Assembly (NCBI GenBank): GCA_044892525.1
Contig: CM097887.1
Span: forward strand, 111,268,397-111,332,396
Direction of reading: 5' to 3'
From: Schmidtea polychroa
Lineage: Eukaryota
DNA: 64,000 nt
Below, piece by piece: positions 1-63,444 of the stretch (the stretch's first letter is position 1; each line of letters begins with the position of its first letter). The translations under genes were made by a program, and so were the position numbers. Below the pieces are notes generated by a model. The model did not search any database. It was given only the letters and a program-made list of their open reading frames with translations, and was not told the origin of the DNA.

Positions 1-2
1 CG

Positions 3-2732
3 GAAGCCTTCATAATCTTAATAGATCTATTATCATATGAGGATAATAGGGAGATAGGAAACATGTATGACGGGTTATTAACTGGAATCAAAGAGAAATT
101 AATAACAATTACTGGAATACTAATTGCATGGAGGAACCCGATCAAAAACGATTATATGGTAGATATAAACGAAACATTTACCAAAGGAGAAAATACCTTG
201 ATGAGGGAAGCGATGAGAGGACATCACCTATTCGAAATTCCAAATCAACTACTACAACGTGGCATAAAATTTTCAAATCACAAAGACGAACAACTAATCA
301 GAAAACGAATTACCAACTTCGAAAAAGCTATATCTCAATTTACCGATAAAGTACAAGTAAAATTTTGGGAAACCGTGAGTGTATTATATATGATGGAGAA
401 TATGAACAACATTCGAGAAAACTACCTAAGTATTATTCAAGTGCTTACGGCGGAAGAACGCATTAACAGTTCAAACAAGTAAAAGATAAAAATAAAGAAA
501 GTAAAAACAAGAGAGTCTGAGGAACAAGTCGATCAAATAATAACCGATATAGCAACAACAAGTAAACCAAAGATAATAAACTCAGACCAGGAGATAATAA
601 TACGCAAAGCCAAAGAGGTGTTCTTTGAAGAAATGCAAGATCTATCCGATGAAGCGATACTAGCAAAAATAACAAAAACAGTACACACCTACGCAAGAGA
701 CCAGACCACAAATCTAGACATAGAAAAAATAAAAACATTTATACCACTAGCATTCACCTTACCAACAAAAGACTCAAGAACACCATTACAACAAGCCATT
801 TTAGCAGCAAATGAAAACAGAGCAATAACCATCATAAGAATCCTTGGAGACTTCGGAGAAGAATCTAATGCAAAAAATGAACAAGGAGAAACAGCAATAA
901 TGTATGCAGCCATAACAAATATACACCCGAAAACATTACATATACTACATCGATCGGGATCAAGACTGGACGAAATATCAAACGAAGGAAATTCTACCAT
1001 GGATTGGGCAACCATACAACCAAACTTGGAAATGATTAGATTCATTTGTAAAAATGCTACAAGAACTGAGGTAGAAAATATCTGTAAAAACACGTCACAG
1101 TTCCAATGGAACACGATACGGATGAACTTAGAAGCCATGAAGTTATTGCTAACATGGAAAATACCGCAAAGCAATAAATATGCAATAAATATAAATGAGT
1201 TCTACGAAAACGGAGAAAATGCTATGGTTAAAAATACACTAACAAAAGGAGGAACTCCGAAAATCATAATGATCGTATTGAACAGAGAAGACCTCAAATT
1301 CACGCAAAATCTAAACGAACAAAAGCGGATTGGAAAACATCGCCGTATACAATTGAGAGAACTGGTAAAAGAATGGAATAGAAAGAGACATGTAGCAACA
1401 GGCAGAAAAGAGTTTGAATTCGAGGCAAAATTAGCAAGGAATAGAGTGTTAACGGCATATCGCAGATTATTGAACGACATAAATGTCGAGGACGACATTT
1501 CAAACGATAGCGGGGGAGATAAAGACGATAAAGACGACGATGATAATGAACAAGGTCGAAACGGGAATGGAGAGAAAGAGAAATCAGAGGAAAATAATCA
1601 AGGGAATAACGACTCAGGTATAAAAAAGGAGGAAAATAAACCGGGAAGCCGAACAAAGGAAGAGGAAAAGACGAATAATGGGAAACAGAGGGTATGCCCA
1701 CTTTTTACCAACAAGGAAATGGAAACAAATATGATGGTAATGATACTCATACTAACAATGATAGAAATGATAACAGCCCACGGTGGAATGAGAACGATAA
1801 AAGAAGCCAAGGAAACGGAAAACAAAGACAACAAGGAGAAGGAACTAAAGCAAGAAAAGAAGAAGCAAGTACGAGAGCAACAATGGGATTTAAAAGAAGA
1901 ATGGGATCTAAAAGAAAGATGCATACTAGGAAGATGTATGTCGAGAGCATATCGGAGACTAGTATTAATAAATGAAGATACAGAACCAATAACGGAAGTA
2001 AGAATACAAGAAGCATACCGGAATCGAGACGGGAAGAGAATAACTAAAGTCAAAGGGAAGGAGGTACACCTGAGAAAAGGAGGTGAGGTAGTGATAACGC
2101 AACTCCAGCCAAGAAAAGAACACAAAGTCTGCATTTCAAGATTAGGACCGGGTGAAGACTGTCTACAATATGTAACACAGCAACAACCTCCAAAAGAATA
2201 CACAGTATGCATCTGGAGAAACGATACAGCGAGAGAATGTCGACGATACCCTGGGAAAAGAGGGAGGAAAAGAAAAATCAATGACGAAAAAGATGAGCAA
2301 GGAAAACGCAAGAAAACCGATGAGAAATATCAAGACAATTATGTATCCGAGGAGGAGATGGAGAAAATACAAAGAATGGCAAAGGAAGGTATGAACGAGG
2401 AAATAGCAAGAATACGAGGAATGATAAAAGGAAATGGCAAAGACGGTAATCTAAAAAACACAGAAGCAATATCAACAATAACGAACAAGGAAAAAGCAGA
2501 AATTATAAGCATAAAACAGATGATGTGGATCAGCGGCATAATAATAACAGGGGCCTTTTTAATCATAACGGGGGAGACAATAAAAATAATCAAAGATAGG
2601 CGGCATCGCGGAGAACTAGAAATGGCCAGAATAAGAAATTTTCAACATCGTGTAAAACGACCAAGTAATATCAAGCAGGAACAGTGGGTGGAGGCCTGGA
2701 ATGCTCAGCGCCCTCCAAGCCCACGTATATAG
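3..2732 (+). CDS. Accessory ORF A (5'-partial): ankyrin repeats + acidic linker + internal signal/TM + FN3-like ectodomain + TM; one in-frame TAA at 480-482
   Basis: Frame 3 is open from base 3 to 2732 except for a single TAA, so ORFs 63-482 and 618-2732 are in the same frame. Ankyrin-like units: DINETFTKGENTLMREAMRGHHLFEIPNQLLQRG, RTPLQQAI, GETAIMYAA, GNSTMDWA. Hydrophobic segments: MMVMILILTMIEMITAHGG and MMWISGIIITGAFLIITG. FN3-like motif VVITQLQPRKEHKVCI and an NDT sequon. Confidence 0.7.
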
Positions 2733-2900
2733 AAAGGATTATGACTGTATATAGATTGTAAAAAGTAAGTAGATAATATTTATTTATATAACAGTATGAT
2801 ATATTTTTATATAACCGCGGTATCAATATTATATAACGATGGGGATAAATAATATAAAAATAAAATTGGATAAGGGTTGAAAAGTATATATAAATTAAGA

Positions 2901-3275
2901 ATGGAGCGAATAGGCGAGGAAGTAAATCACAGTACAACAACCGAGGAGATGTGGAAACAACAATGTGCAATGTTAACTCAAGTGATTTCGAACTTACAGG
3001 AACAAGGACTCGCTGTACAAAGAAGCTTAGTCGAAAGTTTAAATAAAGGCTTCAGTTATGTAAGAATAATCGAAGACCAACGAATAAAAATAGAACAAAT
3101 GCAGCGAGAGATAGACCGAATATCACGATACAGCCAGGTGCAAGAAGAGGAGTTATTAAGAATCGCGGAAGAGATGGAGCGAGAGGAGATAGAAGACTGG
3201 TCAGAATGGTTAACCAGCAGGGAAGAGGGCGGACAAGAGGCGACTCTTCCAGCCAATAAATATAACCTAAAATAG
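2901..3275 (+). CDS. Accessory ORF B, small coiled-coil protein (124 aa)
   Basis: ATG at 2901. E/Q/R-rich heptad-like sequence with the same codon bias as the flanking cassette ORFs. Confidence 0.6.
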   Translation: MERIGEEVNHSTTTEEMWKQQCAMLTQVISNLQEQGLAVQRSLVESLNKGFSYVRIIEDQRIKIEQMQREIDRISRYSQVQEEELLRIAEEMEREEIEDWSEWLTSREEGGQEATLPANKYNLK

Positions 3276-3348
3276 CAATGTAAATAACTGTAAATAAAAA
3301 TACGAAACTGTACCAGTAACGAATATATGTATATATATAATTATAGAA

Positions 3349-4736
3349 ATGGATAAGCGACAACGAGAAGAATTCAAAGAAATTGTTGAACAAGTCAGAA
3401 AGTCCACCACAATTCGAATACACAACCATGTAACGTGTGGGATATGCAAGAGCTTATTAAGAGAACCTCACCAAACCAGATGTGGATGCAGAATGTGCAG
3501 AGAATGTGTAGAGGAGATAATAAAGAAGGGACCACAATGGTGCCCAGTATGCAAAGAAACAATGATAACAAGTTTGGGAGATACAAACGAAGATAAAGCA
3601 GCTGTAAAAGATATGTTGAATGCAAACCTAGGATGTAAAAACACCCCATGTAATTGGCGAGGAGTGATATGGGAAGTGAGGCAACATATGGAGCAATGTG
3701 AATATAAAATCAGTCAATGCAAACGTTGCCAAGAAGAGATTAAAGTCAATGAAGAAGCAGAACATCAAAGTCGATGCGAAGGAAGACTGGAGAAATGTGA
3801 GTATTGCGGAGAAACCGACACCTGGAAAAAACTAATCAGTCAACATCACAACATACAAGAGGAGAAAGTGTGCACAGAATTCAGAGGAGAATGCCCCAAC
3901 AAATGCGATAAACCCGGAGTAATAAAACTCGCTCAACATCTAAAAGAATGTGAAAGAAAAAGATAACGTGTGTGCTAGGAAAATGGGGATGTCAGAAACA
4001 ATTACACCGAGGGGAATTACCCCAACATCTAGCAGAAAACGTATCAACACACGCGGAAATATGGTCAACGGCATTACAAGAAAACGAAAGGAAAACCGAA
4101 AACTTAGAAAGAGAAATAATCTCGCTAAAAGCGTTGGTAAAAGAACTATTAGAAGAAAAGGAAGCATTTGAAGAGGCAAGAACAAGTACAAAGATACAGA
4201 CAGATCTAGTAGAAACTAGCAACATTATGGTGAAAGAACTACATCAAAAAGTAAGCGAATTAAACCTCAACGAATTAATACCAACGGCTCCATACATATG
4301 GAAAATAACGGGAGTAAAAGAGAAGATGCAGAGAGCGAGAAATGGAAAGGATACAACATTACTAAGTCCAGCATTCTACTCATGGAAAAACGGGTATAAA
4401 ATGAAAATGAAAGCATACCCCAATGGGGATGGGAGTGCATACGGAACGCATTTCTCAGTATTCTTCTTGATGTGCAAAGGGCTATACGACGAGTTAATAG
4501 AATGGCCATTCAAAGCAAAAATAGACCTCGCAATGATGAACTATCAAAGTATACATGAACAGAGTTTCCATACAGCGGGAAACCTCGTATGTTACCAAAG
4601 GCCCTTGGAAGAAGAAGGACCAGCAACTGGAGCACCGAATTTCATCCTACAGCGGAAAGTAGAAGACATGACGAGAAACGACACTATATACATAAAAATA
4701 GCGGTGAGGCGAGACGGGAAGAGTAGGACTGAGTAG
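3349..4736 (+). pseudogene. TRAF: TNF receptor-associated factor (RING + TRAF zinc fingers + coiled coil + MATH), intronless, split by a 1-nt frameshift
   Basis: RING CGICKSLLREPHQTRCGCRMCREC...CPVC, TRAF zinc fingers (CKNTPCNWRG...HMEQC), and a MATH domain (YIWKITG...SPAFYS...GYKMKMKAYPNGDGSAYGTHFSVFF...EWPF). Adding one A to the A5 run at 3957-3961 fuses the two ORFs as ECERKKITCVLGKWGC. Confidence 0.92.
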
Positions 4737-4950
4737 AGAGACGAATAATTTTGTATATACTAATTGTAAATATCGGCGTATATATCCAGTAAAATATTAT
4801 ATAATAGTGTAGAAAACCCCAAATCTACTAAAGGTAAACTTAAGCGTAAAACTCCTAAAACAACTCCTATAACGAATTGTAACAATAAATAAATAATAAA
4901 ACAGATATAGACGTACAACGTTGAGTTAATGATATCGTTATTTAGACAAG

Positions 4951-5988
4951 ATGACTCAAGATCAAACGGAAGCCCCAAATAACGAAATAAACATCAGTAG
5001 AATACATAGAGAGAGATGGGCCAAAGTAATGATACAATTATCAAACCAAACACGAAATTACCTCGAAGAAGCGAGAGAATGGGAAAACCACCAATTCCAG
5101 TGGTTAGTACAGAATTTACGGGCGGAGGCCGAGGCCTGCAAAAGAGCCGCCAAATGGTCGGCATTAGAAAATACCAGGCAAGAGGCGCACGGGCATTACC
5201 TGAAGCAGCTGGTACAGGAGTCAAGAAAAAGACTAACGGATGAGAATAAGAAGCGGGAAGTAGAAAAACAAAAGGAGGAAAGAAAGACCCGCCAACTATT
5301 AGCAGAAGCTAGAAAGTGGAAAAAACAACATCGAGAAATCCAAAAAGAGATGAGAGAATTGCCGCAGAGATTGAAACACGAGAGTGATCAAGGAAAATGG
5401 GAAGAAAACCTGGATCAGAAAGAAGAGTTAAGAAGGCTCCGGAAAGTAGCAGCTAGAAGTCAAACCTGGCAGACCAAGGCCATGGAATTTGAAAGGCATC
5501 TGGCCATGAAACTGTCTATAAAGGAACAGGAAAATACCGCCATGGAAGAGATGATCCTGCAACAGTCAGGTAGAATCGTCGAACTCGTAAACAAGGTGGC
5601 AGATCTTGAAAGAGACAATAACGGCTATAAGGGGGCACTAGAACAAAGGAATATAGTGCTAGCCGGTAAGAATAAGAAATTGGAAAACGAGAGGAAGATG
5701 TATGACGAAAATATCAAGAACCTCGAAAAGGAGATCAAAAAATGGGAGAACGGCGAAAAAGCGGAGGAGTTAGAAAAACAGATAGAAGTAAGAGATGATG
5801 AAACCAGGTATCTGACATACCTGTTAGACGAGGAACTCAACGTGTCAAGAGCGCTAAGAGACGAAGTTCAGGAGCTTAGAGCACAGATTCCCCGGTACTA
5901 CATCCCATTTGATCCCATCGCAATCCAACTACAAACGTCAATAGACAGCGATGAAGGGTATGTAGGCCAGGAAGAAACCTTTGTATAA
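4951..5988 (+). CDS. Accessory ORF D, long coiled-coil protein (345 aa)
   Basis: Intact ORF, E/K/R/L-rich helical sequence with a short non-coiled C-terminal tail. No recognisable family. Confidence 0.7.
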   Translation: MTQDQTEAPNNEINISRIHRERWAKVMIQLSNQTRNYLEEAREWENHQFQWLVQNLRAEAEACKRAAKWSALENTRQEAHGHYLKQLVQESRKRLTDENKKREVEKQKEERKTRQLLAEARKWKKQHREIQKEMRELPQRLKHESDQGKWEENLDQKEELRRLRKVAARSQTWQTKAMEFERHLAMKLSIKEQENTAMEEMILQQSGRIVELVNKVADLERDNNGYKGALEQRNIVLAGKNKKLENERKMYDENIKNLEKEIKKWENGEKAEELEKQIEVRDDETRYLTYLLDEELNVSRALRDEVQELRAQIPRYYIPFDPIAIQLQTSIDSDEGYVGQEETFV

Positions 5989-6038
5989 AGATAAGGTGAA
6001 AAGATAAAAAATATAAAAAGCGGGACCTGTATCCCAAC

Positions 6039-6067
<29 letters not shown>
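6039..6067 (+). repeat. Poly(A)29 tract between ORF D and ORF E
   Basis: 29 consecutive A, flanked by imperfect direct repeats CGGGACCTGTATCCC (6021-6035) and CGGGACTGTAACCC (6093-6106). Confidence 0.9.
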
Positions 6068-6070
<3 letters not shown>

Positions 6071-6183
6071 ATTAGTACGATAAAAATATTTACGGGACTG
6101 TAACCCTGATTATATAAAATTACCTATAAATGTATAAGTATAAGCCGCACTGTAGCGCACTATTAATTGTAAATATTGTAGAA

Positions 6184-6894
6184 ATGAAAATAGAAGAAAT
6201 ATCCACCATGACCGAGCTAGAGGAGGGAGAAATTGAAATCGAGGAAGTGGAGAGGAAGAAAACTATCAAAGAAGAATTACAAGAAGAGAAACAAGAAAAC
6301 GAAAGATTAGTAGAAAGGTGGAGAGATAATCGAAAAATGATTAAAGTATTGAAAAGAGAATACACCTTGCTAGAAGAAGTAAAGAAAGAAGTAGAGGAAG
6401 AAAATGAATGGCTTCACGAGCAAGGAAAGCGAGGAAGAAATTGGGAGAAAATTGCGGAGGAATTATGGCAGGAAAGAGCCAGTCTCAAGGCTAATGAAGT
6501 GATTGAAGATTACTGGAAAACGGAAGCGAGGAAACGACAAGAAACTATCAGGGGTCTAGAAAACCAGCTGGGAGTAAAAGTGCAGGAAAGTGCAAAAATG
6601 GAGAAATGGATCAATAAATACCGAGAAATAGAAATAAAACGGCAGAAACAAAGCCCAAAGACGAACGACCCAGAAGAAAATGATTTCCTACAATTGGAGC
6701 TGGAACGGAACTTGGAGGAGAAAAAGAAGGAGATAAAAACCTTGAAAAGAGAGATAAAACACTTGGCGGACAAGGTCCAAGAGAAAGATAGGCAGCTCGA
6801 GATGTTGCCGGAACTCCGACATAGGGTCATTAAAGCAGAATCCAAATTAATGAGAATCCGAGAGAGAGACCCTAAAAAGAAACGACAAAATTAA
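6184..6894 (+). CDS. Accessory ORF E, coiled-coil protein (~236 aa; alternative start 6130)
   Basis: Intact E/K-rich heptad ORF. The ATG at 6184 follows a TAG acceptor-like site, and the charged composition begins there. Confidence 0.65.
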   Translation: MKIEEISTMTELEEGEIEIEEVERKKTIKEELQEEKQENERLVERWRDNRKMIKVLKREYTLLEEVKKEVEEENEWLHEQGKRGRNWEKIAEELWQERASLKANEVIEDYWKTEARKRQETIRGLENQLGVKVQESAKMEKWINKYREIEIKRQKQSPKTNDPEENDFLQLELERNLEEKKKEIKTLKREIKHLADKVQEKDRQLEMLPELRHRVIKAESKLMRIRERDPKKKRQN

Positions 6895-6953
6895 AACCAA
6901 CAAAAAGCGATGTATATAAATATGTATAAAATAACTAAATGTATATCAGTATC

Positions 6954-7613
6954 ATGAGAAGCCAACCGATCATTGTAACGCTGATGATGATGATAATTCT
7001 TGATCTAACCCGACGACAGCCAGTGAAACCCCAAATCGAACGGGTTCGAGACAACAGAAAACCCCATCAGAAAATCGAACCAACAACCCCATCGTGCACC
7101 TGCTCAAATGCCATAAGAACCAATCTTATCAATAACCTTCGAGCAACCCGAAACTACATCAACAACATCAGAATTATGTGTAATCACAACCCTATGTGTA
7201 AAATCATCGATAAAAGAATTCTGGACCAAATTCACCAAGTCGATCAATTAGAACAGCAGGTCCAACACCAAGAAACACAAAATCCACCCGATCAAGTAAA
7301 AAGCCCGAATGAAATAAACCACACCTATGAACTCCTCTATGTGGTAATCGCCGAGACCACCTTAATCTCAATAGTCACCCTGCTAAAAATCGGTAACCTC
7401 TGCAAAGTTTGGAAGAAAAGTCACCCCGTACCAGAAAGATCATCTCGAAGATCCCAAGAAGCTAACATGGCTGAAGTAATCCATGAAAACCTCCGTCAAC
7501 GAACCTCCATCGCAGAAACAGTCAGACCATCCGCAAGTCGCCGAATATACTACAACATCGAACCCCAACAACCAAATCCCCCATCATCAACGGCAACTGA
7601 ACACCAAACATGA
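6954..7613 (+). CDS. Accessory ORF F, small type I membrane protein in the env position
   Basis: N-terminal hydrophobic signal (IIVTLMMMIILDL), Cys-containing helical ectodomain (CTC; CNHNPMC), TM segment LLYVVIAETTLISIVTLLKI and a cytoplasmic tail. It is the last ORF before the PPT-like tract. Confidence 0.65.
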   Translation: MRSQPIIVTLMMMIILDLTRRQPVKPQIERVRDNRKPHQKIEPTTPSCTCSNAIRTNLINNLRATRNYINNIRIMCNHNPMCKIIDKRILDQIHQVDQLEQQVQHQETQNPPDQVKSPNEINHTYELLYVVIAETTLISIVTLLKIGNLCKVWKKSHPVPERSSRRSQEANMAEVIHENLRQRTSIAETVRPSASRRIYYNIEPQQPNPPSSTATEHQT

Positions 7614-7829
7614 CACTTCGAACTGTAACTATTGACAAAATTCTTGATGTTTTATTATATTATGATGAAACCGGTCACCTTAAGTGGCCACTGCTTGTCT
7701 ATAATTGTCATTTTCTCTGTTTAATTAAAATAATTTTTGTTAATTTAATTCTATGTGTGTGTGGATTTTGATTGTGAGATTAGTTGTTATACTGAAAGCA
7801 GGTACGATTCGAATGTACGATATTATGTG

Positions 7830-7867
7830 AATTGCGGGACGCAATTTTAACGGGCCCCGGAGTGATT
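7830..7867 (+). other. Gypsy-type 3' hairpin and degenerate polypurine-tract region
   Basis: Perfect 7-bp stem AATTGCG/CGCAATT with a GGA loop (GGGACG core), followed by TTTTAACGGGCCCCGGAGTGATT directly before TG at 7868. The tract is not purely purine. Confidence 0.55.
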
Positions 7868-8365
7868 TGTTGGGCCAAGCTCCGAAGGTGTTGGAAAAAC
7901 GAACCTAGGAAGGGATAGAGTAAAATAAAATAAAAACATATAAAAATACGAGAAACATAGGAGGAAACAAATTAAATATCCAGAAAGAAATTAGAATAAA
8001 ATTAGAATAACTAAATAAAATAACAAAACCCCTAAAGGAAAAATAAGACAAGAGGGAAGGCACCTAATAAACGACAGTAAAAGAAAAAAAAATAAAATAG
8101 CAGAAAATTTAAGAAAAATGAACAAAAGTAAAAGAAGAAAAACAAAATAAAAATAAAAAAATCATCCATAAGGCTAATTAAAACAAAAAAGGAAGTTACA
8201 ATAAAATAGCAACAAAACCACAAGAAAAACAGATAAAATAATAAAAAATAGGAAAATAAATAAAATAATAATAAAAATAGGAAAAAGTCATTAAAATATA
8301 CCTGATTACATTAAAAAACATAAAAATCATAATAAACAATAATATTACATGCAAGTCGCGTCCTG

Positions 8366-8389
8366 ATTGGACGAAAAGTAATATATAAA
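8366..8389 (+). promoter_or_regulatory. LTR Pol II promoter: inverted CCAAT box and TATA box
   Basis: ATTGG at 8366-8370 and TATATAAA at 8382-8389, followed by a hairpin-forming region (8403-8436). Confidence 0.6.
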
Positions 8390-8709
8390 GAGCGACAAAA
8401 ATCTGTAGAGTATCATTCTAACCCGAAACTCTACAGGTAAAATTTTATCCTTTATAATATCATTCTAACCCGAAACTCTACAGAAAAGCTAGGAACCACT
8501 CACAAGCACAGATTATTGAACCATATTCATTTATCGGATAACATATACATTGAACGGAGATCGAATTCAGCTCAGTCGAACGAGTCTATCTAAAGAAAAC
8601 TTATATTACTTTGATCTAACACCTTCGGAGATTTTTGGTAAATTATGTTTTAGATTTTAGTATGATGATCTAAATATTTATTATGAATTTAACAAGTCGT
8701 TTATAATCC

Positions 8710-8750
8710 AATAAATTTCATATTTTAAACGAAGGTGTTGCTTTCTCTCT
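8710..8750 (+). terminator. Putative LTR polyadenylation signal with GU/U-rich downstream element
   Basis: AATAAA at 8710-8715 followed about 20 nt later by GGTGTTGCTTTCTCTCT. Confidence 0.4.
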
Positions 8751-10708
8751 ATGAGGCTGGCGACGGCGTCCTCTGGAATCCGGGTATGATGCAGTTGGGT
8801 TTTTCGAACGTCCTACGGAGAGGAAATTTACGAATATGAACTCGGGAAATTGAAGTGATAGAACTAGCCCAGGATCCATATGAATTTAGAAACTAAAGTG
8901 ATTACTTAATGAATACGAGATTTATGCTAACCAGAGTCATCATGCCCGGATTTCAAATGTCGTGGTCGCCAGGTGAACATTTATTTAATTGATTTTCTCA
9001 TAATTCCATTATTTCTATATTGATTCACTGAATAATTAAATTGTATTGTTGCACATTTATTGAGAATGGAGTTGCGATGAGACGGGTCGAGTCGTCCTTC
9101 ACACCGGTCCAAGAGCAGTGGGCAGAGATGCGTACTGCCTTGGGTGGGTTGTGAGGAGCGAGGAAACCATGTGAGATTTAACAAATCAAGTAAATGATTC
9201 TTTCATCGAGTGTAATCCACCCATCTTAGTCGTCGAAAACCATCCAATGCAGAAACTTCTGAGTGACATAGTTTGAGTCAACGATACCTTGGGAACTCCC
9301 GGAGGCATACCATTAGAACTATCATCAGCCTTGTATCCAATCACGTCATTAATAATCTTTGATTTGGAGCCTTATTCGTCTTGCATTGAGAGAAGCGACT
9401 GCTAGAACGTCTGCCGGAAGGAGTTATTAATTTCGAGTTTTTACGAGAGATTCTCTGTACTAAGCCCATTTCGTATCTTACAATCTGAAGGTGCTTTGGA
9501 AGCTACACCGCCGGGAGGTTAGCGAATAGATCCATCGTCTTGCTTATCGTCGACTCCGGGGGGACTTAATCATCAACCGACATCTAGCCGCTGTCATCGA
9601 TAATAGCCGTTTTAGAGATGAATGTAAACATCTCTAGATAGTAGATTTAAACACTGGCTATGAGTCCGAAGGAAACGGTCGCCAGCGACATCGGGTGGGC
9701 GTAGTAGACTGCCGGGAAATCGGTTGATAAGATATCTGAAGCCTCAGTCACGAGCGAACGAGTTGACAGTTTTTATCTCAAAACCAATTAGTGGAGCAAA
9801 ATCTAAATATGGAATCGATCTTATCTAGTAGATTCGCAATTTAGCCCACACAATTAGATTCACGAGTTTTCTATGACACCCTCTTAGATTTCCACCTATC
9901 TAGAAAGTCAGCCAGCGATGTCATGTCTAGTGTGCAGATAGTGGATAAATTTATCTCACGATTGTGTAACGGTAGACCAGGAGATGGTAGACTACATGTC
10001 CAATCCGACAGTGAGATTACGTCATACTGAATAGTAGAATGTTCTACCTAGTCCACGACCACAGGCTGAAGATAAATCATACAATGCATGCATACGAACA
10101 GACCTGACAACATCTGCTAGCCTACCTCCAGGGTAAAACTAATACACCACTACTCACAAACAAGCGTCGTTATGACGACATTTATGGCGCAAGATTTAAG
10201 ATGATCAAATAGCAAATTATGATAAGACTTAAATTGAATTTTGCGGTTCTTTTATGAAGCCGATCACGGCGGTTTAAAACCCCAATAGTCACCCGTCATA
10301 CCGAACTATGTTTTTGTGACTTCACGAGTGCGAAATTTTACGAGTATAGTAGGACGGGGAGTGGGAATGCTATTACTAGGGAAGGATAATTATAACAAAC
10401 TCGACTGTGGTAAATTAATAAAAGCACATTAAATAAAAATGGCCAATTTCGGACAACAAACATAAATTCAAAGTTAGGATAAATGTATTATTTTGAGGAA
10501 GCCCGTTTTCTTTTTTTTTTTTTTTTCTCTATCAGTGTGGATGCTTGCAGACAAATGAGTGTAAATGTTGACCAGTGATATGGGTAAGTGGGTCATTGTC
10601 GAGTAGGATGATTGGAAATAGGGTAAAAATTGTAGTCAAAATTTGGAAACGACACTCCAACGATTTTTTTTTTAAACTCTACAATTAACAAAACGTCTTG
10701 ATCTTTAG

Positions 10709-11470
10709 ATGCCTGCTTCAACCGCTACGAACAAGGATCTCCGTCCCTGCTTCTCCTGCGCAGATAAAAACGCAGACATAGCACAACTCCACTCATACAT
10801 TGGGGCACTGAAAAAGAGAATTGATCTCTATGAAGGCACGTGGTTCTCCCCGCCACAGATGAAGGAGGAGCGCAGTAAAATTCTTCGGTTGGAACATTGC
10901 CGGGACAGCCTCCTAGAGGAGAGTCGCTGTCAAAGACTGACGATCAAGGCGCAATCGGAAGCCCTCCACAAGGTCTACACGGAGGCAGAATTGGCCAAAC
11001 GGGTACGAGAATTTCCCGTCTTGGAGGCCAGCAATGTTTTTCCCACTCACCACCAAAGTACTTCCACCGCTACAACCAGTTGTCTGGGGCACGGCTCCTA
11101 TCTGCCGCCTGTTCCAGCACCGGCCTTATATAGTTGTCAGCCGCCGGTAGGTGGTCCATCCGACCCTATCTTGGCTCCAGTTTTAGTGACATCAGTTACA
11201 GCACCCGATGCGGACAACCATCAACCACAGCGTAAAAGAAAACGGCCGACCCGAGCCGCCAAAAATCAAAGACGTCGAGATGCAATCGCGGCTCTCGAGG
11301 CGTCGTTATCTGTGGCCAAGTCTTCTCTGGAGAAGTTATCGTCAATACCCTCTACCCCCACAAAGGAGATATTCCGGGTGATCTCGCCCGAAGGGGTCCA
11401 GCTCGTGCGAGACCGTCGGTTACCGGTCGACATCGACGAGATGATCGCCGAAGGGGAAGTTTTCCCATAA
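10709..11470 (+). CDS. LTR-encoded 253-aa protein (CxxC, coiled coil, Arg-rich motif, acidic C-terminus); intact copy
   Basis: Intact ORF preceded by TTTAG. Homologous ORFs at 32975-33748 and 43587-44360 share LE(H/R)CRDSLLEESRCQRLTIKAQSE with mostly synonymous differences. Confidence 0.85.
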   Translation: MPASTATNKDLRPCFSCADKNADIAQLHSYIGALKKRIDLYEGTWFSPPQMKEERSKILRLEHCRDSLLEESRCQRLTIKAQSEALHKVYTEAELAKRVREFPVLEASNVFPTHHQSTSTATTSCLGHGSYLPPVPAPALYSCQPPVGGPSDPILAPVLVTSVTAPDADNHQPQRKRKRPTRAAKNQRRRDAIAALEASLSVAKSSLEKLSSIPSTPTKEIFRVISPEGVQLVRDRRLPVDIDEMIAEGEVFP

Positions 11471-14270
11471 TTGGACGTGTCGTTGACCCATCTCTCATTC
11501 CACGCGATCAAGCTCAACAATCTTTATAAACGACTTAGATGATGCGTGTTGTGTACTCTCCTACGTGTTGTGATCGGAAATTTGTGTTCATATGTATCCT
11601 CAATTTCATTAATATAATCATAGTATTCGTTGTGTTGTCCCGTAAAAGTTATAGAGTGATGAGTTATGACTGGACGAATGGATTGGAATGATCATTGGAG
11701 AATGTGGGTCGTCCCCTTGGACCAGGGTCGTACCGAGAATACATGACGAGTAGGGGTAAGACCTTCTTAGGCACCGAGGAACCTGAACTGAGAGGGGGTC
11801 CGTAGTAGTCCTAAGGCAGGGGCTCACCTGCGGACCAACTCCGACCCGTGTGAGCAGTACCAACGTGGGTAGATCATCACGGGCTCACATGAGGGAATAT
11901 TTGTAAATCATGCGGGTTATGTGGGGGAAGGGCCCCGAGCTAAAGGAACATGATGCCAGCTGCACTACGAATGTCCGTTTGACTCCTCCCATATACGCCC
12001 AACAATAGTAATCGATAAAAGTGTAATTGTGATTGTCTCGAATAAAGATTATTGTGTTTGGTTGTTTAAATAAATTTCAGAAAGAACACAAAGGAGTCAG
12101 ACCGTGATACCGACTTGCACAAAATAACTAACACTAAAATGTAAGATGAAAAATATAAGATCATGAAGATTGTTGAAGAACAACCGAATATGACGAAGAA
12201 ACCTCTTCATAGTATGAAACCTCAAACCTTAAACAAGGTCTTGGAGAACAAAAAAGATTCTCTCGCAAAACTGTTTGATTACAGCTGAAGATAATTCTCC
12301 CTTTTAGACGAATATTTTGGATGTAGTCAGTCATAATGTCTGTAGAATAAAGTGAAAAGTAGAATGATTGAAACCAGTTTTCGTTCAACGGGTTTTGTCA
12401 AAAGGACAGAATTTTATTGGACTAAACCCAGTAAAATAACATTTTAAATTATCCTTTTGTTTAAATTAATAATAATTAAAAGAGAAAAATAAATGGTCAT
12501 CTGAGAAGACATCAAATCAAAGAGCAGTTATTTAAAATAATTAAAAACACCAATTAAAACTAAAGTAAAGTAAAACAAAAATAAGAGATAAATAAAACAA
12601 AATTAATAAAATCAGTATCACATTATGTATAACACACGAAACATATTTTAAACGCATAAAACTACAAAATAAATTGTCGAAAAAAGACAATAGCAAAAAA
12701 GTATCACCTTATCCATGGGAATCCTTAGAGGTTATTAGCCTAAACGGTGGTAAATGTTCTCAAGTCACCAGCTGATGGCAGTATCAGAGTCTCCATATGA
12801 GGCAGCCGTACAGTCATCTCTGACAATTATAATATTAAAATAACCGCTCGACATCATCTAAAGAAGGCCACGGCAATCAGTCAATTCTACAACCATGCCA
12901 TTCCGTTAATCATCAACCTAAGCTTGAACGAAATGGTTTTCTCCTTTACAGTCAATGCCAACATCTTCAACCTTGATGATTTGTTGGCCAATGTCGAAAG
13001 AGAGGTTATAAGCCCATCTGGAACTTTGTGTGTTGAACTAATTCATTTTGTTATGTTTTGTCAATTATTATTCATTAAATCTCTATCGCTGTATTGCTTT
13101 GATTTTCATTTTTTCTAAGTTACTAATAGATATATTATAAGTAATAATTATCATCTTCATCTTAACAGATAGGTGGTATTCAGGCCTCAAGAAGGAATTA
13201 ATATATCCCGTAAATTTTGAGGACCACAAATTTCGATATGTTATGACAATACCAACTTATCGTCTCTAGCTTTGGCGTAAGACCTTTTATAGCCCGTCCT
13301 GAACCCGTTTCAGATCGTACGATAATGAATAGTTCTGGCTTACCTGCTTATCGACCTCAATCTATTATGTACAATTCCAACATGGCCATCGATTTCGGTC
13401 CTCCAAGCTGATGGCTATTTATTATCGCTATTTATTTTAATTTGGAATACCATATAATCCTTATCGCACGATTCAGTAGGTTATGTTTTATATTTGTTTA
13501 TGTTTTTTTGTTATGTTTTGTTTCATGTATAATAATTTAAATCAATAATTTTTCTGATTCATTTTTTCTTAATTTAATTTAGTTATTATTATGTAAATTT
13601 TATGAATGCACTTGTCCAAAAATTCGATTTGTAAAGATATATGCTGTAGTCGGATGACAATCCACACCATTAAGCTGGGGGAGCTCAATGAAATTCTTGC
13701 GAAGTCGTGTGGAGTTTGGTGCCTCAATTTGAAAGTAAGCGGTACTCGAATTCCACTTAGAGAGGACTTTAGTGCAAATCACCTCCGTGACCATTTATAG
13801 TATCAAAATATGCATATGAAAACCAGATCAATGATGAAAACCCACATTTTATCCTTTCGAGCGATTTCCAGCGCAACCCAGAATACAAGAAAGTTGTACT
13901 GCTCGATACCCGTTGAGCTTTTCTCGCTGGTGTTGTCCACTTGTCAGTGAGAGGGCTCCAACCGATAACCGTGATTCCATGCTCGAACCCGGAGTGCTTC
14001 TTATTTACGAGCTTGAATTCAAATGTTTGTTCAATCTGTTGATCTCCCTTAGCTGCTATTTTCGTTTGTACTGTTGGGGTTGGGCTCGTTCAAAGAGCAA
14101 TTTCATTAACCGTATAGAGACTAGGATGATAGTTATAATAATAATAATATGTAGATAATAATAAAAATTATTAAAAATAGCATAGATATAATAATAGTAT
14201 TATTTAATTACCTAAAATAAATTAGAATTAGAATTAGTACATTTAAATTACTATATATAGATAGTATGCT

Positions 14271-16131: not shown

Positions 16132-17475
16132 CTCACTATAGGACATTGATTTATCATAAGGACATTCAATAAGCTAAAAATTTTCATTTTTAAATCAAAT
16201 TATTGTCAAAATGTTCGAAGATATTTCAGAAGCTTCTTCAGAATCAACAATTCCATTTCAAGAAATTCATAGAAATGTGTAAGTTTTTCATTAAACTTTA
16301 ATTATTTTTTAAAAATCGATATAGAATTACCATTAAAGATAAAGAAAGAATCATTAAATCCATGGAAGATGACCATGATTATTATGAATTAGGCCGTATT
16401 CTTGGAATTAAGCGGAATACAATAACCAGCATTATTTTGAAATATAAGAAGACTGGAATTTTATCCGCAGGAACAAGAGGAGGCAATCGACCAACAATTA
16501 TCACAACAATTATTGGCCAGGAATTATTGAACTATGTCGAAAGAAATTATTATTCGACATTAAATCAAATGAGATTGTTTTTATCTACAAATCACAATGT
16601 AGAAATTTCCACAAAATCAATATCCAGGTACCTGAAAAATCAATTATTAACCTTCAAAAGGATCAGGCCTTGTGTGGAAGAAAGAAATTCAGATAGAATA
16701 TTGGATATTCGGCAGACATATGTTACACGTCTGCTTGAAGAAGGTTGGAGGAGCAGTAAATCTATTTATATAGATGAATGCTCTTTCAATACATGGACAA
16801 ACAAGAGATTCGGAAGATCTCGAGTAGGCACTCGAATTTACAGCAATGTGCCAACAAATCGAGGTCCCAATATTTCATTAGTTTTGGCAATATCCAAAAA
16901 TGGGCCAATCCATTCACAAATCATCATTGGCTCTTTTAGAAAGGAATCATACCAGTCATTTATAACAGAATTGACTGAGAAACTGAATGGCTCTGGATTC
17001 ATTTTGATACACGATAATGCATCCATCCACAATAATGTATTATCTTTGAACAATCACATAGAAAAGTTGCCTCCATATAGTCCATTTTTGAACCCCATCG
17101 AAAGTGTGTTCAGCAAGATTAAAAATGGGGTAAGGACTAAAGTTTCCTCGACTAATGGATTTTCCAGGATGAGTTTCAATGACAGATTTATCGCAATATC
17201 CCAAGCAGTTATCGAGGAACTTAGCAAACCAGATTATAGTAATTTGAAAAATTACTATAATCATATTAAAAGGTTCTTCCCTAAATGATTGAAGAAGCAG
17301 GATATTTTAGGTGAATTCTGAAAAATGTAATGTATATTATAATAAATAATTAAATATCTTACTTCTTTATTCATTATTTTTAAAAAAATCTTAAAATTAA
17401 CTAAAATCCAGAACAAAGCTTATTTGACAAAGCTAAATGAATGTCTCATTTATGATAATTAAATGCGCTTTGGTG
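16132..17475 (+). mobile_element. IS630/Tc1/mariner-superfamily DNA transposon
   Basis: Transposase gene flanked by degenerate inverted ends (CATT.A.TTATCATAA...GACATTCA.T.AGCT on both sides) and TA dinucleotides at 16130-16131 and 17476-17477. Confidence 0.75.
16211..17321 (+). CDS. Tc1/mariner-type transposase, two exons (16211-16278, 16325-17321), premature TGA at 17286-17288
   Basis: 46-nt GTAAGT...TAG intron joins in frame. N-terminal HTH region. Catalytic motifs IYIDECSF, IHDNASIH and PPYSPFLNPIE. The frame continues LKKQDILGEF after the TGA. Confidence 0.85.
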
Positions 17476-32430: not shown

Positions 32431-34300
32431 TGTTGGGTGCTTAGGGGTGAGCCGCGATGGTAGTTGTTAGGGGAAGTGAAAACTGCTCAGAGACTCCTTC
32501 CTAAACGCTCATTATGATTATTATCTGACTGCCACATGTGTACCCATGATATAGATCATGTTGGAGATGTACTCACGGGTTGGAATTCATGAGCATGTAA
32601 GCCGCTGCGTCAGAACTACTCCTCATGATATTCACTTTTCGGGTCCTAGAATACCGATAGAAGGACTTACATCTTACTTATTTTCTCATATCGAGATACT
32701 GACAAACCTCTGGTCCAGTTGAGGTCATCCTTAATCACTTTCTTTCTCTATTACACGACCATCAGACCGAAACATTTTTCAATTTCTTGACACCGATAAG
32801 ACAGACAAAAACATACGACATCAAAATTGTATTAAATTCACAGTACGTGAGATACTACATGGTCTTAACACATCCAACAAGTCATACGACAAAATTTACG
32901 ATATTAGTAGTAGATCAAAAGGATACATTTTGTCCGGATCAATTACAGTTAACGACGATAGACGGCCTGGGAAGTTATAATAGTTCCGCACCTTCCTTCA
33001 AGAGAGCAGCGATATCTATTTCCTACTGTGGGTCTCTGATCGGTGGAGTATTATAGGAGAGCACAACCCTATAATGAGGAGTACTGGGCAGTGCTTGGTT
33101 AGATGTAGATTCCTTTTTCACCGTACTAGGGACAGCAAACAACATTGCTTCCACGACAGCTATTTCATCTCGTCGTTTCTTTGAGCTCTCAGCACGAGTG
33201 AGGAGATTGCGCTTCCGAGAAGTTGGCTGATTAGGAACGGTGAAAGTGGTTATCGGAACTGTTAGTGATGTGGTTACGCTGGGTGGTTGAGCCAGGAACA
33301 CACTGGTTTCCATAAAAATGGCATCGGAGATAAGTGAAGGGGACATTTCGGGTCAGTGATTAAGGCAGATCGCCGTAGAAAGGACTCGAGTTTCGTCGGC
33401 ACGATGATGGACCGAAAAGACGTTTAACTTATCGATGACCGGAAACTCAGTGATTCGACTTTTTAACTCCGCCTCCGAACAAATGCTGTGGAGGGTCTCC
33501 GACTGGGCCTTGATAGTGAGTCGCTGACACCGACTCTCCTCTAGCAAACTGTCTCGACAGTGCTCTAAACACAAGATTTTTCTATTGGCCTTCTTCATGA
33601 GTGATGGGGAGAACCACGTACCTTCGAGTGCATCGATGCGCTTCTTCAGAGCCCCGAGATTGTCTTTCAGTTGCCGGATTGTCGGATTTTTATCTGCGCA
33701 CGAAAAACACGGCTTTGGGCCAGGCTTGGTAAGATTTGATTTGGACATTTATTAAAAATTTAGAAAGATATTTATAGGGTGAACGCGAATATCAAATGGA
33801 TATATAAGTGATCAGACATCTGGTCTATAAGTCATAAGCATATACAAATCGAACTTAACCCTACTTCTAGCATTTAAATTTTACACGATGGTCGGATTTC
33901 AGTGGATCTCCACCTCTTACCCTACTATCATCTCTGTGTATGTCTTGGAAAATTTTCCGAGCATGGGGACGAAATTTGATCGACGAATATAGGTGAACTT
34001 CTCGTTATTATTAAAGAAAAGGTTAATTAATCCAGAGGTTTAATTTGAATGATGATTAAATTTAAAAGTTATTTTAAATAATATTAGGGATAAATTAAAT
34101 GAACGGGTAGTCGGGGAAAACCTTCCTTCTTATTTAAATGAATATTTAAATTTAATTCAAGTATTAATTAGAAAAGTGATTCGATTCGAGAATTGGCTTA
34201 ATTAGTATTAGAGACGAATCAAATATATGTTTATCAACAAATCGAATAGACTAAATAATTGTTTAGGTGATGGATTCAAAGTAACATTAATTTTTATTGG
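32431..34300 (-). repeat. Partial LTR, second subfamily copy (terminus at 32431)
   Basis: Minus strand ends in CACCCAACA. Contains the conserved terminal block and the LTR-ORF homolog, and abuts the MULE at ~34302. Confidence 0.7.
32975..33748 (-). pseudogene. LTR-encoded ORF homolog, copy 2, with two in-frame stops (33353-33355, 33023-33025)
   Basis: ORFs 33353-33748 and 33023-33346 are in one frame. The frame continues EIDIAALLKEGAELL*, matching the C-terminus of copies 1 and 3. Confidence 0.85.
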
Positions 34301-34301
34301 C

Positions 34302-36049
34302 TCCTAATTAAATGCAAACTAAATAATCCCATTTTGCACACTAAAAAATTAACATTTGCTAACTATTTTTGCAAACTAAAAAATAATTTTTGCACACTAT
34401 AAAATTGATTTTTGCTAACTATTTTTTGAAAACTAAAAAAATGATTTTTGCACACTATTAAATACTTATTTGCTAACTATATTTTGCAAACTAAAAAAAT
34501 GATTTTTGCACACTATAAAATCGATATTTGCTAACTATGTTCTGCAAACTAAAAAATAAATATTTGCACACTATTTTCAAAAATATTTATACATTATAAA
34601 ATAAAAATTCCAGATATATTTCAATGAATAAAAAAGCATAGAGATTACAATTTATTGTGAATGCTTAAATACAACAATTTATAGACATTTAAAAAATGGT
34701 TTAACAAAATGTTTTGTATGATGGCTGCATTTTATTTGCACTAGATATAATAAATTTTTAGTTCTACTGCAACAGCAATGCTTTTCTTGCTTTTGCAGGG
34801 CGACCTCTCTTTCTTTTGGTTCCAATTGGAACATTTTTCGCTTCGGTTGGAGGGGCTACAAGCTTTAGTCGAATAGCTAATCCAACAATGTGTTTGCAAA
34901 GCATTTTTTTAAAAAAAGAAGGGCAGTTACAGTCTCCGTTAATCCAGTCATTTTGATCTTTTGGTAAAATAGTAGTCCATGAAAGAAATGCATTAATTTT
35001 AAACTCATCAAACGTTTCCCTGTTGTCAATTCCATCGTAGGTTTCTGTCAAATCTTTTGCAGCAATTTTGTAAACAACACCACTCTCTGTTGATTCTGGA
35101 GAAATGGTTTTCTTCAACTTTGCATACTGGTATGAGCTAGTACAAAGTTCCAAGTCAATTTCTGGTTCGGTTTTGATGACTTTAATTCCAGATTCGTAAT
35201 TGTTGGACCACCTTTCAATCCAATCAACCAATCCAACAGTAAATCTTGATAGTGAGACTCACTCTCTCATAGAATCTTCATCTTTCATGACTCGGTTGTA
35301 TGCCTCAAGGGCATTGTTTGTGCTAGGTGTTAGATTTTTGGCACCTTCAAACCAATTTTTATTTGATTTCAGCCATTCAGCTGTGAAGTATTCGACAAAC
35401 TCCTTGTTTGCCTTCCACTTTTTCAAGAATAAAATTGATGCTTTTTCAAAAACTTCTCTGGATTGACTGAGTTGCAAAGAATCAATGTCAGACAAAATTT
35501 CCTGTCTTGCATCTTTTGGAATCAAAGAATCCACTTTTTTCTGAACATTTTTTTTCATATGAGCCCAGCACATAATCACCAATACGTCTTTGCCAAACAC
35601 TGCTATGAAAGAGTTTTGGATGCTTTTTGATGCATCAGAAATTAATGTGCTTGGATTGAAGGGAGCATTGAAGATTTTAGGAACTTCATTCTATTGGCCT
35701 TCTTCATGAGTGATGGGGAGAACCACGTACCTTCGAGTGCATCGATGCGCTTCTTCAGAGCCCCGAGATTGTCTTTCAGTTGCCGGATTGTCGGATTTTT
35801 ATCTGCGCTTTATAGTTATAGACTTTATTATTTATAGTTACCACTTATTATTTATAGTTAGCATTTATTATTTATAGTTAGCATTTATTATTTATAGTTA
35901 GCATTTATTATTTATAGTTAGCATTTATTATTTATAGTTAGCATTTTGTATTTATAGTTAGCATTTATTATTTATAGTTAGCATTTATTATTTATAGTTA
36001 GCATTTATAGTGTGCAAATACATTAAAATAGTGTGCATTTAAATTGTAG
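34302..36049 (-). mobile_element. Internally deleted Mutator-like element (MULE) with repeat-built inverted ends
   Basis: Transposase fragment 34764-35688 (ISDASKSI...MCWAHMKK, STNNALE, SWIM finger CNCPSFFKKMLCKH, AT-hook KRGRP). Left end has ~57-bp repeats with TTGCACACTA/TTGCTAACTA; right end has the inverse motifs TAGTTAGCA/TAGTGTGCA. No TSD found. Confidence 0.8.
35809..36008. repeat. 20-bp minisatellite (TTTATAGTTAGCATTTATTA)n, ~10 units, forming the MULE right subterminal region
   Basis: Direct inspection. Confidence 0.92.
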
Positions 36050-40162: not shown

Positions 40163-40741
40163 TCTAATATATAAAGATGAAAGTTTGTTTGTTTGTTTTC
40201 TATAGAATTCCCCATTGTTGGACCTAGGGTGCTGAAAATTTACATGTGGCCCTCATTTGACTCGGGACAGATCATATGATATTTTTCAACCCCAGGTGAC
40301 CACCCCTTAGTCGGTTTTTTGTCTGTCCAGTCAGTAATTTACCATATAAATAATAATTTATTATATGCTTGCTACTTGCAGTTGAAAGTAATATAATTTA
40401 GTCAAAAGTTTTCAAAACAGAATTCAAACATGGAGAATTTGAATTGTATTTGATTAGTGAACCAGTTTGCAATTGGAAACATATTGCCAGTTATTTTTCA
40501 ATTTAAATTGGAGTGCGTTTTCGATTTTACAAATTGAAATTTATTTTGAAAGCTTTTCTTATTGTGAATTTGCGAAGTTTTCTCCGGCCGAAAAGCTGAT
40601 ACTACCTTATATCAGACTAGCTGTTGTACCCGGCTTCGCCCGAGTTTACATTTATTATAACAATTCGTTTAAACAAAAAATTAATTTAAACGAATTATTA
40701 TAATAAATGTAAACTCGGGCGAAGCCGGGTACAACAGCTAG
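40163..40741 (+). mobile_element. Non-autonomous Helitron
   Basis: 5' A|TCTAATATATAAAG...GTTTGTTTGTTTG; 3' GC-rich CGGGCGAAGCCGGG followed by AGCTAG|T. Confidence 0.7.
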
Positions 40742-40790
40742 TCTGATATAACGTAGTATCAGCTTTTCGGCCGGAGAAAACTTCGCAAAT
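40568..40790. repeat. Fold-back inverted repeat with 106-bp arms and an 11-bp spacer
   Basis: 40568-40673 is the reverse complement of 40685-40790 with about 2 mismatches. Confidence 0.92.
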
Positions 40791-46000: not shown

Positions 46001-46880
46001 ATACCTCTCTCTCTCCATTTTTTTCGGATAATTACATTTCCAAGTTGTCATAATTTATACAATCCATTCCTACCTCATCACATTTGTGTAGAAATTCCTT
46101 CTCTGGCTATACTACAATCTTCGATATTCAACCAATATCAATATCGCCTGTTCTTGATTTCAACTCAAATCCTTCGACTGAATACAAGGGAACATATCTC
46201 AAAATCTTTCCGCCTCTCTCTCTCCTGCCTATGCGTTCTCCCCTGTTCTTCATTGGTGAAATCAAGTGGTCCTTCTGTACTCTCATTATTCTTCTCAGTC
46301 ATTCCAGTACGGCTTTTCGCATTCGCAATCATAGAACAGTGTCATCGCTGAATCTCAACATAAATAAAATTCGTATCATGAAGAGAAAAGAGGAACATTT
46401 TATGACTATCATAATATTTTAATCCAAATAAATAATCATACTATTTGTACATAAATAATGAACGAAAATTTACATTTTTCCTTTCCTTTCTGGTCGATAA
46501 AATTCTGAAAACTACTGTGATATAATATACGATCAAGTACTAGATATAGTGTGAAGTAGTGTTTTTTCTTTTTTTTGTTCTTTTTAAATTCTTTTCCTAA
46601 GTTATTTGTCTTTTTCTTTTGATAATTTATTAAATAATTTAATTTTCACATTTTTTCTCCTGCTTTTTGTCGGATCCTGATGGTCGTTTTGTTTGTAGTT
46701 TGGTATTTTATTCCTTTTTTGTTTTATTTATGGTTTTTATTGATTATAATTTATTTCTTTAGTAATATTTTGTTCTTTCGATATTTATTTTTATTCTCTC
46801 TAACTATTTTCTCTTTGCTTTTTTGGTATTTAGGTATTATTAACATTATTATTATTCAGATAATATAATCAAAAGTTACC
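43081..46880 (-). repeat. Near full-length diverged LTR, third subfamily copy (terminus at 43081; far boundary approximate)
   Basis: Minus strand ends in GACCAACA, with the conserved terminal block and the LTR-ORF homolog. An A-rich tract (minus strand) at 46560-46860 lies at a similar distance from the end as the U3 A-rich tract of copy 1. Confidence 0.6.
43587..44360 (-). pseudogene. LTR-encoded ORF homolog, copy 3 (1-nt deletion and TGG>TAG near the 5' end)
   Basis: PKPCFSCADKNAD, then a frameshift, then RALKKRIDTLKST*FS...KILRLERCRDSLLEESRCQRLTIKAQSE...WKRKRPTRAER...DIDAMIEEGDLV. Confidence 0.85.

Positions 46881-57929: not shown

Positions 57930-57960
<31 letters not shown>

Positions 57961-63438: not shown

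Positions 63439-63444
<6 letters not shown>

Follow-up and report, generated by a model that had tools for sequence, protein, structure and literature searches.

Locus and coding content

The window, that is, the whole stretch analysed here, comprises 64,000 nt of contig CM097887.1 of Schmidtea polychroa (assembly GCA_044892525.1; all positions are counted from its first letter). Bases 1-7613 are strongly A-skewed, with all ORFs on the + strand. They encode ankyrin, RING and MATH domain proteins, followed by accessory ORFs lacking a Pfam match (Table 1), and the TRAF-like gene is divided between two overlapping frames near 3954-3966. No relatives of the accessory proteins were found in the protein database searches. 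These ORFs precede a putative 3' LTR, while the element extends beyond the left window edge and gag-pol lies outside the window. Within the 64 kb we detected no copy of this LTR family similar enough for covariation analysis, no partner 5' LTR and no tRNA gene, and an Rfam search of 7000-12000 gave no credible match (one hit at E=4.4).

The LTR probably belongs to a Burro-like giant retroelement. The giant planarian Gypsy elements Burro and GYPSM1, as far as the accessible text of PMC6431247 describes them, share with it MATH/TRAF, RING and ankyrin domains, accessory ORFs, a multi-kb LTR and AT-rich host DNA, and differ in the placement of the accessory ORFs, which here stand before the putative 3' LTR.

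Acceptor-like contexts precede 8 of the 171 ATGs in 1-7613, and in four of these eight cases the ATG ranks first or second among those in frame with an accessory ORF. This placement would fit spliced expression from a shared 5' donor, and trans-splicing would fit too. An acceptor-like AG stands directly ahead of ORF starts at 3349, 4951, 6184, 6954 and 10709. The ORF inside U5 has partly broken homologues near 44315-43593 and 33748-32990, and in its diverged copies at 44361 and ~33722 (- strand) the AG is present and the ATG absent. A flatworm spliced leader ending in AUG could provide a start codon for these copies. Database searches with the U5 ORF returned 11 weak protein matches, no Pfam family and a best Atlas value of 0.85, a lead at most; eight of the nine matches scanned carry unrelated host domains, so no family name is given. 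The occurrence of its N-terminal half in unrelated host proteins is as would be expected for a dispersed repeat exonised into gene models or transcripts. Part of a U5-ORF copy is also present as an exact 120-nt duplicate (33580-33699 and 35689-35808), which adjoins a SWIM-domain ORF and tandem arrays at 34300-36030 and has perhaps been captured by a DNA transposon.

LTR anatomy

The + strand orientation and anatomy of the LTR are supported by computation, its borders being placed by motifs. The termini fit the consensus TGTTRNR..YNYAACA given in the part of PMC3601003 available to us and are of Metaviridae type, and its right end is shared with two diverged copies, whose ends are at 43081 and 32431 (homology in 0/100 shuffles each) and which also have the U5 ORF in common with it. 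The probable layout is a short U3 (to ~8414), an R of ~315 nt and a U5 of ~3.3 kb. The elements at 8382-8418 form the only TATA-initiator pair on either LTR strand, and the start predicted from them agrees with the initial annotation, which had transcripts beginning at ~8410. The AATAAA at 8710 is the sole one in the LTR with a G+T-rich stretch behind it, the corresponding values for 18 U3 hexamers being 0.16-0.48. TATA/initiator, AATAAA and GT-rich stretch thus follow one another in order within the LTR.

Several further features were noted around this region. The ATTAAA upstream of the LTR may compete as a poly(A) signal in accessory mRNAs, and genomic RNA would need to read through it and its GT-rich stretch (7724-7770). 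No classical polypurine tract was found ahead of 7868; two hairpins, 7831-7847 and 7852-7876, lie at the internal/LTR junction, where such a tract is expected. Strong, uninterrupted U5 helices occur in both related LTRs, of 18 bp in 8757-8791/8938-8972 and of 19 bp in 45775-45757/45724-45706 (- strand). The former inverted repeat overlaps, or lies directly against, donor-like sites at 8784 and 8973, which are inside U5 and hence in both LTRs.

Table 1. Features of the putative element and its 3' LTR (positions within the window)
Feature	Position	Strand	Remarks
Ankyrin ORF	483-2732	+	Pfam Ank_2, 9.7e-07
TRAF-like RING ORF	3298-3966	+	Pfam zf-C3HC4, 3.3e-05
MATH ORF	3954-4736	+	Pfam MATH_2, 2.8e-25
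ORFs without Pfam match	4933-7613	+	accessory
ATTAAA	7724-7729	+	downstream G+T 0.81; 144 nt ahead of LTR
Hairpin with short purine run at top	7852-7876	+	across internal/LTR junction; region z -0.86, not significant
Putative 3' LTR	7868-12004	+	4137 bp; 8-bp terminal inverted repeats
Site A	7880-7895	+	LTR positions 13-28, U3; would occur only at 3' end of element transcript
U3 purine tract	8051-8062	+	complementary to 8739-8750
TATA box	8382-8389	+	paired with initiator
Last U3 bases	8401-8411	+	predicted to pair with 8428-8438 only in 3'-type RNA; P 0.99-1.0
Initiator TCATTC	8413-8418	+	A at 8415, putative start
Donor-like CAG/GTAAAA	8434-8442	+	GT at 8437-8438; putative donor
Site B	8615-8630	+	in R; partner of A (16 bp) or C (11 bp)
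3' extension of B	8628-8638	+	pairs with 8708-8719 including AAUAAA in 5'-type RNA; MFE and centroid
AATAAA	8710-8715	+	downstream G+T 0.68
Site C	8730-8740	+	start of GU/U-rich downstream element; at or just after expected cleavage site
35-nt inverted repeat in U5	8757-8791 with 8938-8972	+	strongest helix of region
ORF inside U5	10709-11470	+	acceptor-like TAG ahead

Three sites with shared complementarity

The initial annotation had proposed that three complementary sites switch polyadenylation off in the 5' LTR and on in the 3' LTR. Its coordinates for A (7880-7895), B (8615-8630), C (8730-8739) and AATAAA (8710-8715) are all correct, and A matches B at 15 of 16 Watson-Crick positions, as it had counted. 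The sole mismatch, G7893 opposite U8617, is a G-U wobble in RNA, so A and B can form an unbroken 16-bp helix. B and C form one of 11 bp (8617-8627 with 8730-8740). A and C have 11 nt in common, the A/B match extends over 16-19 nt as an inverted repeat, and A, B and C hold the only three occurrences of the 10-nt core in the 64 kb. The predicted duplex energies are -29.3 kcal/mol for A-B versus -17.2 kcal/mol for B-C. With the borders placed as above, A falls in U3, B in R and C at the R/U5 border. As the initial annotation had held, C lies over the expected cleavage and GU-rich site, forming the start of the GU/U-rich element behind AATAAA 8710. Planarian poly(A) signals lie 10-30 nt upstream of cleavage, according to the available text of PMC5068929, which would place C at or just past the cut. 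A geometry with A in U3, B in R and C on the only AATAAA backed by a GU-rich element would fit a role in poly(A) site choice.

The region 7868-8800 was chosen post hoc, and the shuffle and tile frequencies that follow are uncorrected probabilities. The top long-range helix of the region reaches -31.8 (stacking sum), compared with -16.3±2.1 and -17.0±2.1 in dinucleotide shuffles. The strength of A-B was matched by none of 205 whole-region and none of 182 block shuffles (0/387 combined), and an equally strong overlapping third site arose in 1/205 and 0/182, respectively. The window was also divided into 136 natural 933-nt tiles, with a border that splits the A-B pair itself. Two of these tiles attained -31.8; both are strands of one 30-bp inverted repeat at ~57.9-58.4 kb, which is perfect (57942-57971 and 58375-58404). 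In the five best + strand helices every non-Watson-Crick position is G-U, and - strand helices are weaker than their + strand counterparts; as support for an RNA switch, both observations are weak and partly built into the search. We rejected the G-U wobble as independent proof of selection on RNA, since a single change in B accounts for both helices. A perfect 11-nt AU-rich inverted repeat (8375-8385 with 8602-8612), whose R arm stops 2 nt before B, was also observed and could stack within the A-B helix at the 3' LTR.

Predicted folding of RNA without and with U3

The folding predictions for the switch cover one LTR copy. For RNA lacking U3 (5'-type, starting at 8410-8415), seven folds at 37 °C and seven at 20 °C were computed. 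The B-C pairing anticipated by the initial annotation has P=1.0 in 14/14. The AAUAAA is drawn into the same stem through the 3' extension of B, a feature absent from that annotation, and its mean unpaired probability is 0.19-0.23. The hairpin 8610-8750 has z -2.47 (1/200 shuffles), and masking of C surpasses that obtained with shuffled upstream R in 131/134 cases. Masking of AAUAAA alone was matched by 19/134 shuffles and joint masking of AAUAAA and C by 10/134, neither being significant, and the 5' leader 8415-8800 is no stabler than shuffles (z +0.59). Given shuffle counts of 3/134 versus 19/134 and this leader value, masking of C in 5'-type RNA is moderately supported and that of AAUAAA only suggested.

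At the 3' LTR, the longer U3 copy had been expected to outcompete C and free the site. In nascent RNA ending at 8640-8725, before C, A-B pairing dominates, with P(A-B)≥0.94 for 12 folds out of 15; folds starting at 7614 and ending before C gave 0.04, 0.15 and 0.60. Once C is present, P(A-B) exceeds 0.5 in just 7/17 equilibrium folds at 37 °C, ranging from 0.00 to 1.0 with the boundary chosen, and in 3/12 folds that include sequence upstream of the LTR; the A-B and B-C states then differ by a few kcal/mol. The comparison with and without U3 thus bears out B-C pairing in the absence of U3, whereas with U3 and C together A does not prevail at equilibrium, so the case rests on transcription order.

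Opening costs bear on the expected release of the site. When A-B is held, the predicted cost falls from 10.8 to 5.8-6.2 kcal/mol for C and from 2.9 to 0.6-1.2 kcal/mol for AAUAAA, and opening AAUAAA together with 8727-8745 takes ~10 versus 12.6-13.5 kcal/mol. The background without B, obtained by shuffling the upstream R, is 7.1±1.7 kcal/mol for C and 1.6 kcal/mol for AAUAAA. A-B pairing would therefore return the site to background pairing, not leave it bare. The U3 purine tract at 8051-8062 might cover the downstream element again in the 3' LTR, its pairing with 8739-8750 being a pseudoknot beyond the scoring of the folding used.

A second helix, between the last U3 bases and 8428-8438 (z -3.66), involves the donor-like site; neither the helix nor this site figured in the initial annotation. 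Opening the donor-like site at 8434-8442 is predicted to cost 2.1-2.7 kcal/mol without U3 and 6.3-7.2 kcal/mol with it. As in foamy viruses, a candidate R donor upstream of AAUAAA would thus be hidden by terminal U3 bases. A 26-nt direct repeat (8411-8436 and 8458-8483) contains the initiator; both of its copies are able to pair with 8402-8411, and the GT follows the first copy only.

Other LTRs in the window

The R regions of three LTRs show no above-chance alignment (148, 33 and 50 of 200 shuffles), which leaves no basis for a covariation test. In the related LTR 46845-43081 (- strand) no comparable long-range helix was found (39/219 and 60/216 shuffles). A possible analogue there, with a purine arm near 46490 and a pyrimidine tract near 46390, was rejected (hairpin z -0.89), as was a similar tract at 46910-46885, which falls outside the putative start of that LTR. 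The unrelated 939-bp LTR 57179-56241 (- strand) has a 15-bp U3-R helix (3/190 and 3/187 shuffles) that is equalled by 7/136 natural tiles. With it we found no change in AAUAAA access (0.2-0.4 versus 0.7), and it was downgraded as support. Neither LTR backs the poly(A) reading, both being without the switch arrangement.

The further LTR-like pieces of the window are 57179-56241 (-), 46845-43081 (-), one ending at 32431 (-) and one beginning at 63441 (+). Three of these four begin beside (AAT)n or (TA)n runs, and the 939-bp LTR has an ATAA-type flank on either side. A 106-bp palindrome (40568-40790) and a Tc1-like DDE transposase ORF (16302-17288) were also detected.

Alternative explanations

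The most serious alternative, which we nevertheless consider unlikely, is that regulation depends on the hairpin of B-C and AAUAAA, on closeness to the promoter (295 nt) and on U1 at 8437, with A having arisen incidentally, for instance as a short inverted copy left behind by reverse transcription. Both cap-to-signal spacing (available text of PMC12789967) and U1 suppression (likewise, PMC3694450) are established mechanisms. Where the LTR begins, TGTTGG occurs twice at a distance of 21 nt, with site A in between; by eye the LTR start at 63441 lacks such an insert, and the other LTRs of the window are without A. Against this, the comparison with 63441 is not significant as an alignment (68/200 shuffles), A spans B exactly, including the 3 nt that open the AAUAAA stem, and a stray copy landing within the sole segment that differs between the two ends would be a coincidence.

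The A-B pairing might instead serve reverse transcription, by circularising the genome in the manner of Ty1 CYC3/CYC5 or by ordering the A-rich U3 loop for strand transfer, which appears rather improbable. The topology is that of Ty1 cyclisation, in which a 3'-end site pairs with a 5'-end site (available text of PMC7969010), the duplex is strong, and R plus U5 (~3.6 kb) would make for a long first jump. The predicted cost of opening B is, however, 8.8-10.9 kcal/mol in the 5' leader versus 6.0-6.5 kcal/mol when R is cut at 8730-8735, and the nearby 3' copy is accordingly the partner that A should favour; B would lie ~3.4 kb from the primer site, and cyclisation leaves the position of C on the downstream element unexplained. 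Cyclisation and the U3-dependent switch are compatible with one another.

A still weaker case can be made for A, B and C as either-orientation DNA sites for one transcription factor. B contains TAACACCT, which we take to be a T-box half-site, repeated orientation-free motifs are common in LTRs, and the shared core is 10-11 nt. The A/B match of 16-19 nt nevertheless goes far past a half-site, and C, 315 nt past the start, coincides with the poly(A) downstream element.

We give very little credence to 7889-8621 (TGTTGGA..TCTAACA) being a small LTR or inverted-repeat element, or to a - strand reading with an A-B self-priming duplex, for which Tf1-like self-priming was the basis of comparison: the 7-mers fit the LTR end consensus in the accessible part of PMC3601003 and A and B form an inverted repeat, yet no direct target duplication borders 7889-8621 on either side, the LTR is set as 7868-12004 by its 8-bp terminal repeat together with the right ends of two homologous copies, the - strand has no TATA-initiator pair and no GT-backed AATAAA, and the + strand carries every ORF as well as the A skew. 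On the same grounds we rejected a MITE bounded by A and B (no direct target-site duplication in its flanks), a small nested LTR (no target duplication, and an LTR already defined as 7868-12004) and Tf1-type - strand self-priming (no - strand TATA-initiator, and A inside the 7868 boundary).

A candidate U3-dependent poly(A) switch

A U3-dependent RNA switch that aids the choice of the 3' poly(A) site is a plausible long-range variant of a retroviral strategy, and we regard it as evenly balanced between true and false. The sequences, their complementarity, the statistics and the predicted energies are established here; we infer the start site, the poly(A) site, donor use, the order of folding and the effect on cleavage. 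At the 5' LTR, RNA starting at ~8415 would lack A, and the arm 8618-8638 would pair with C and AAUAAA, so that both the signal and the first part of the GU-rich element would be concealed. In the 3' LTR, by contrast, A would be transcribed ~730 nt ahead of B and capture all 16 nt, and C, emerging 100 nt after B, would find it already bound. Since A covers the whole of B, C would have no direct toehold on it; invasion of A-B from the inner stem is possible. The masking stem might thereby be delayed long enough for cleavage. In the same RNA, the last U3 bases and 8428-8438 would conceal the donor-like site at the 3' LTR only, where U1-type suppression would then be lifted.

Comparable solutions are known. 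U3-dependent refolding sets LTR poly(A) choice in foamy virus, and AAUAAA is masked in HIV-1. In prototype foamy virus, the first stem is lengthened at the 3' LTR by U3 bases -13 to -1, so that the donor is concealed there (accessible text of PMC3694450), lifting U1 suppression at that end (PMC3694450 and PMC5784592, in their available parts). The present LTR resembles it in having a candidate R donor upstream of AAUAAA in both LTRs and in the predicted use of the last U3 bases, here ~-14 to -4. It differs in that the foamy virus poly(A)-signal fold, as the available sources describe it, is identical at both ends, while the prediction here is that U3 pairing over a 720-nt range gives the poly(A) region itself another fold.

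The text of PMC12789967 available to us places HIV-1 AAUAAA in an R/U5 stem, as predicted here, and has U3 favouring the 3' site through enhancers that aid CPSF binding, with the donor downstream of the LTR; that text describes no U3 antisense copy seizing a stem arm. The stem predicted here is ~120 nt and also spans the GU-rich element. With a U5 of 3.3 kb, an HIV-style downstream donor would be present in both LTRs and could not create asymmetry; U3 or proximity to the cap would have to provide it.

With Ty1 CYC5/CYC3 the LTR shares a long-range 3'-terminal site complementary to a 5'-end site; CYC5 lies by the primer-binding region (PMC7969010, in its accessible part), whereas B, being part of R, occurs at either end and finds a third partner where the poly(A) site lies. 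In HTLV-1, as in the present prediction, 3'-end formation is governed by RNA structure that spans hundreds of bases, there through the Rex-response element, with the difference that its AAUAAA is in U3 and is looped to the cleavage site (available parts of PMC3694450 and PMC12789967), the usable AAUAAA here being in R.

Our literature search, thin on subscription papers, found neither a long-range U3 antisense copy disarming a poly(A) hairpin nor any such study in a Gypsy-type element; as such papers were mostly outside the search, the evidence for novelty is weak. The available portions of PMC8532177, PMC13238120 and PMC11410931 added nothing on LTR structure.

An LTR element with AAUAAA in R has a signal that must be ignored once and used once, a problem for which the known solutions come from a few vertebrate retroviruses. 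We put forward, tentatively and with more doubt than conviction, that this giant invertebrate retroelement has a two-layer, U3-triggered poly(A) switch, in which a 16-nt antisense at the U3 start would capture the arm of the masking hairpin co-transcriptionally across a 720-nt A-rich spacer, and the last U3 bases would hide a U1 site. A U5 of this length would leave no room for HIV-style asymmetry and would thereby compel such attenuator-like kinetic control, which other families might also have, built from unrelated sequences. If true, it would offer a compact case of co-transcriptional strand competition steering eukaryotic 3'-end processing and a rule for locating R boundaries in giant LTRs.
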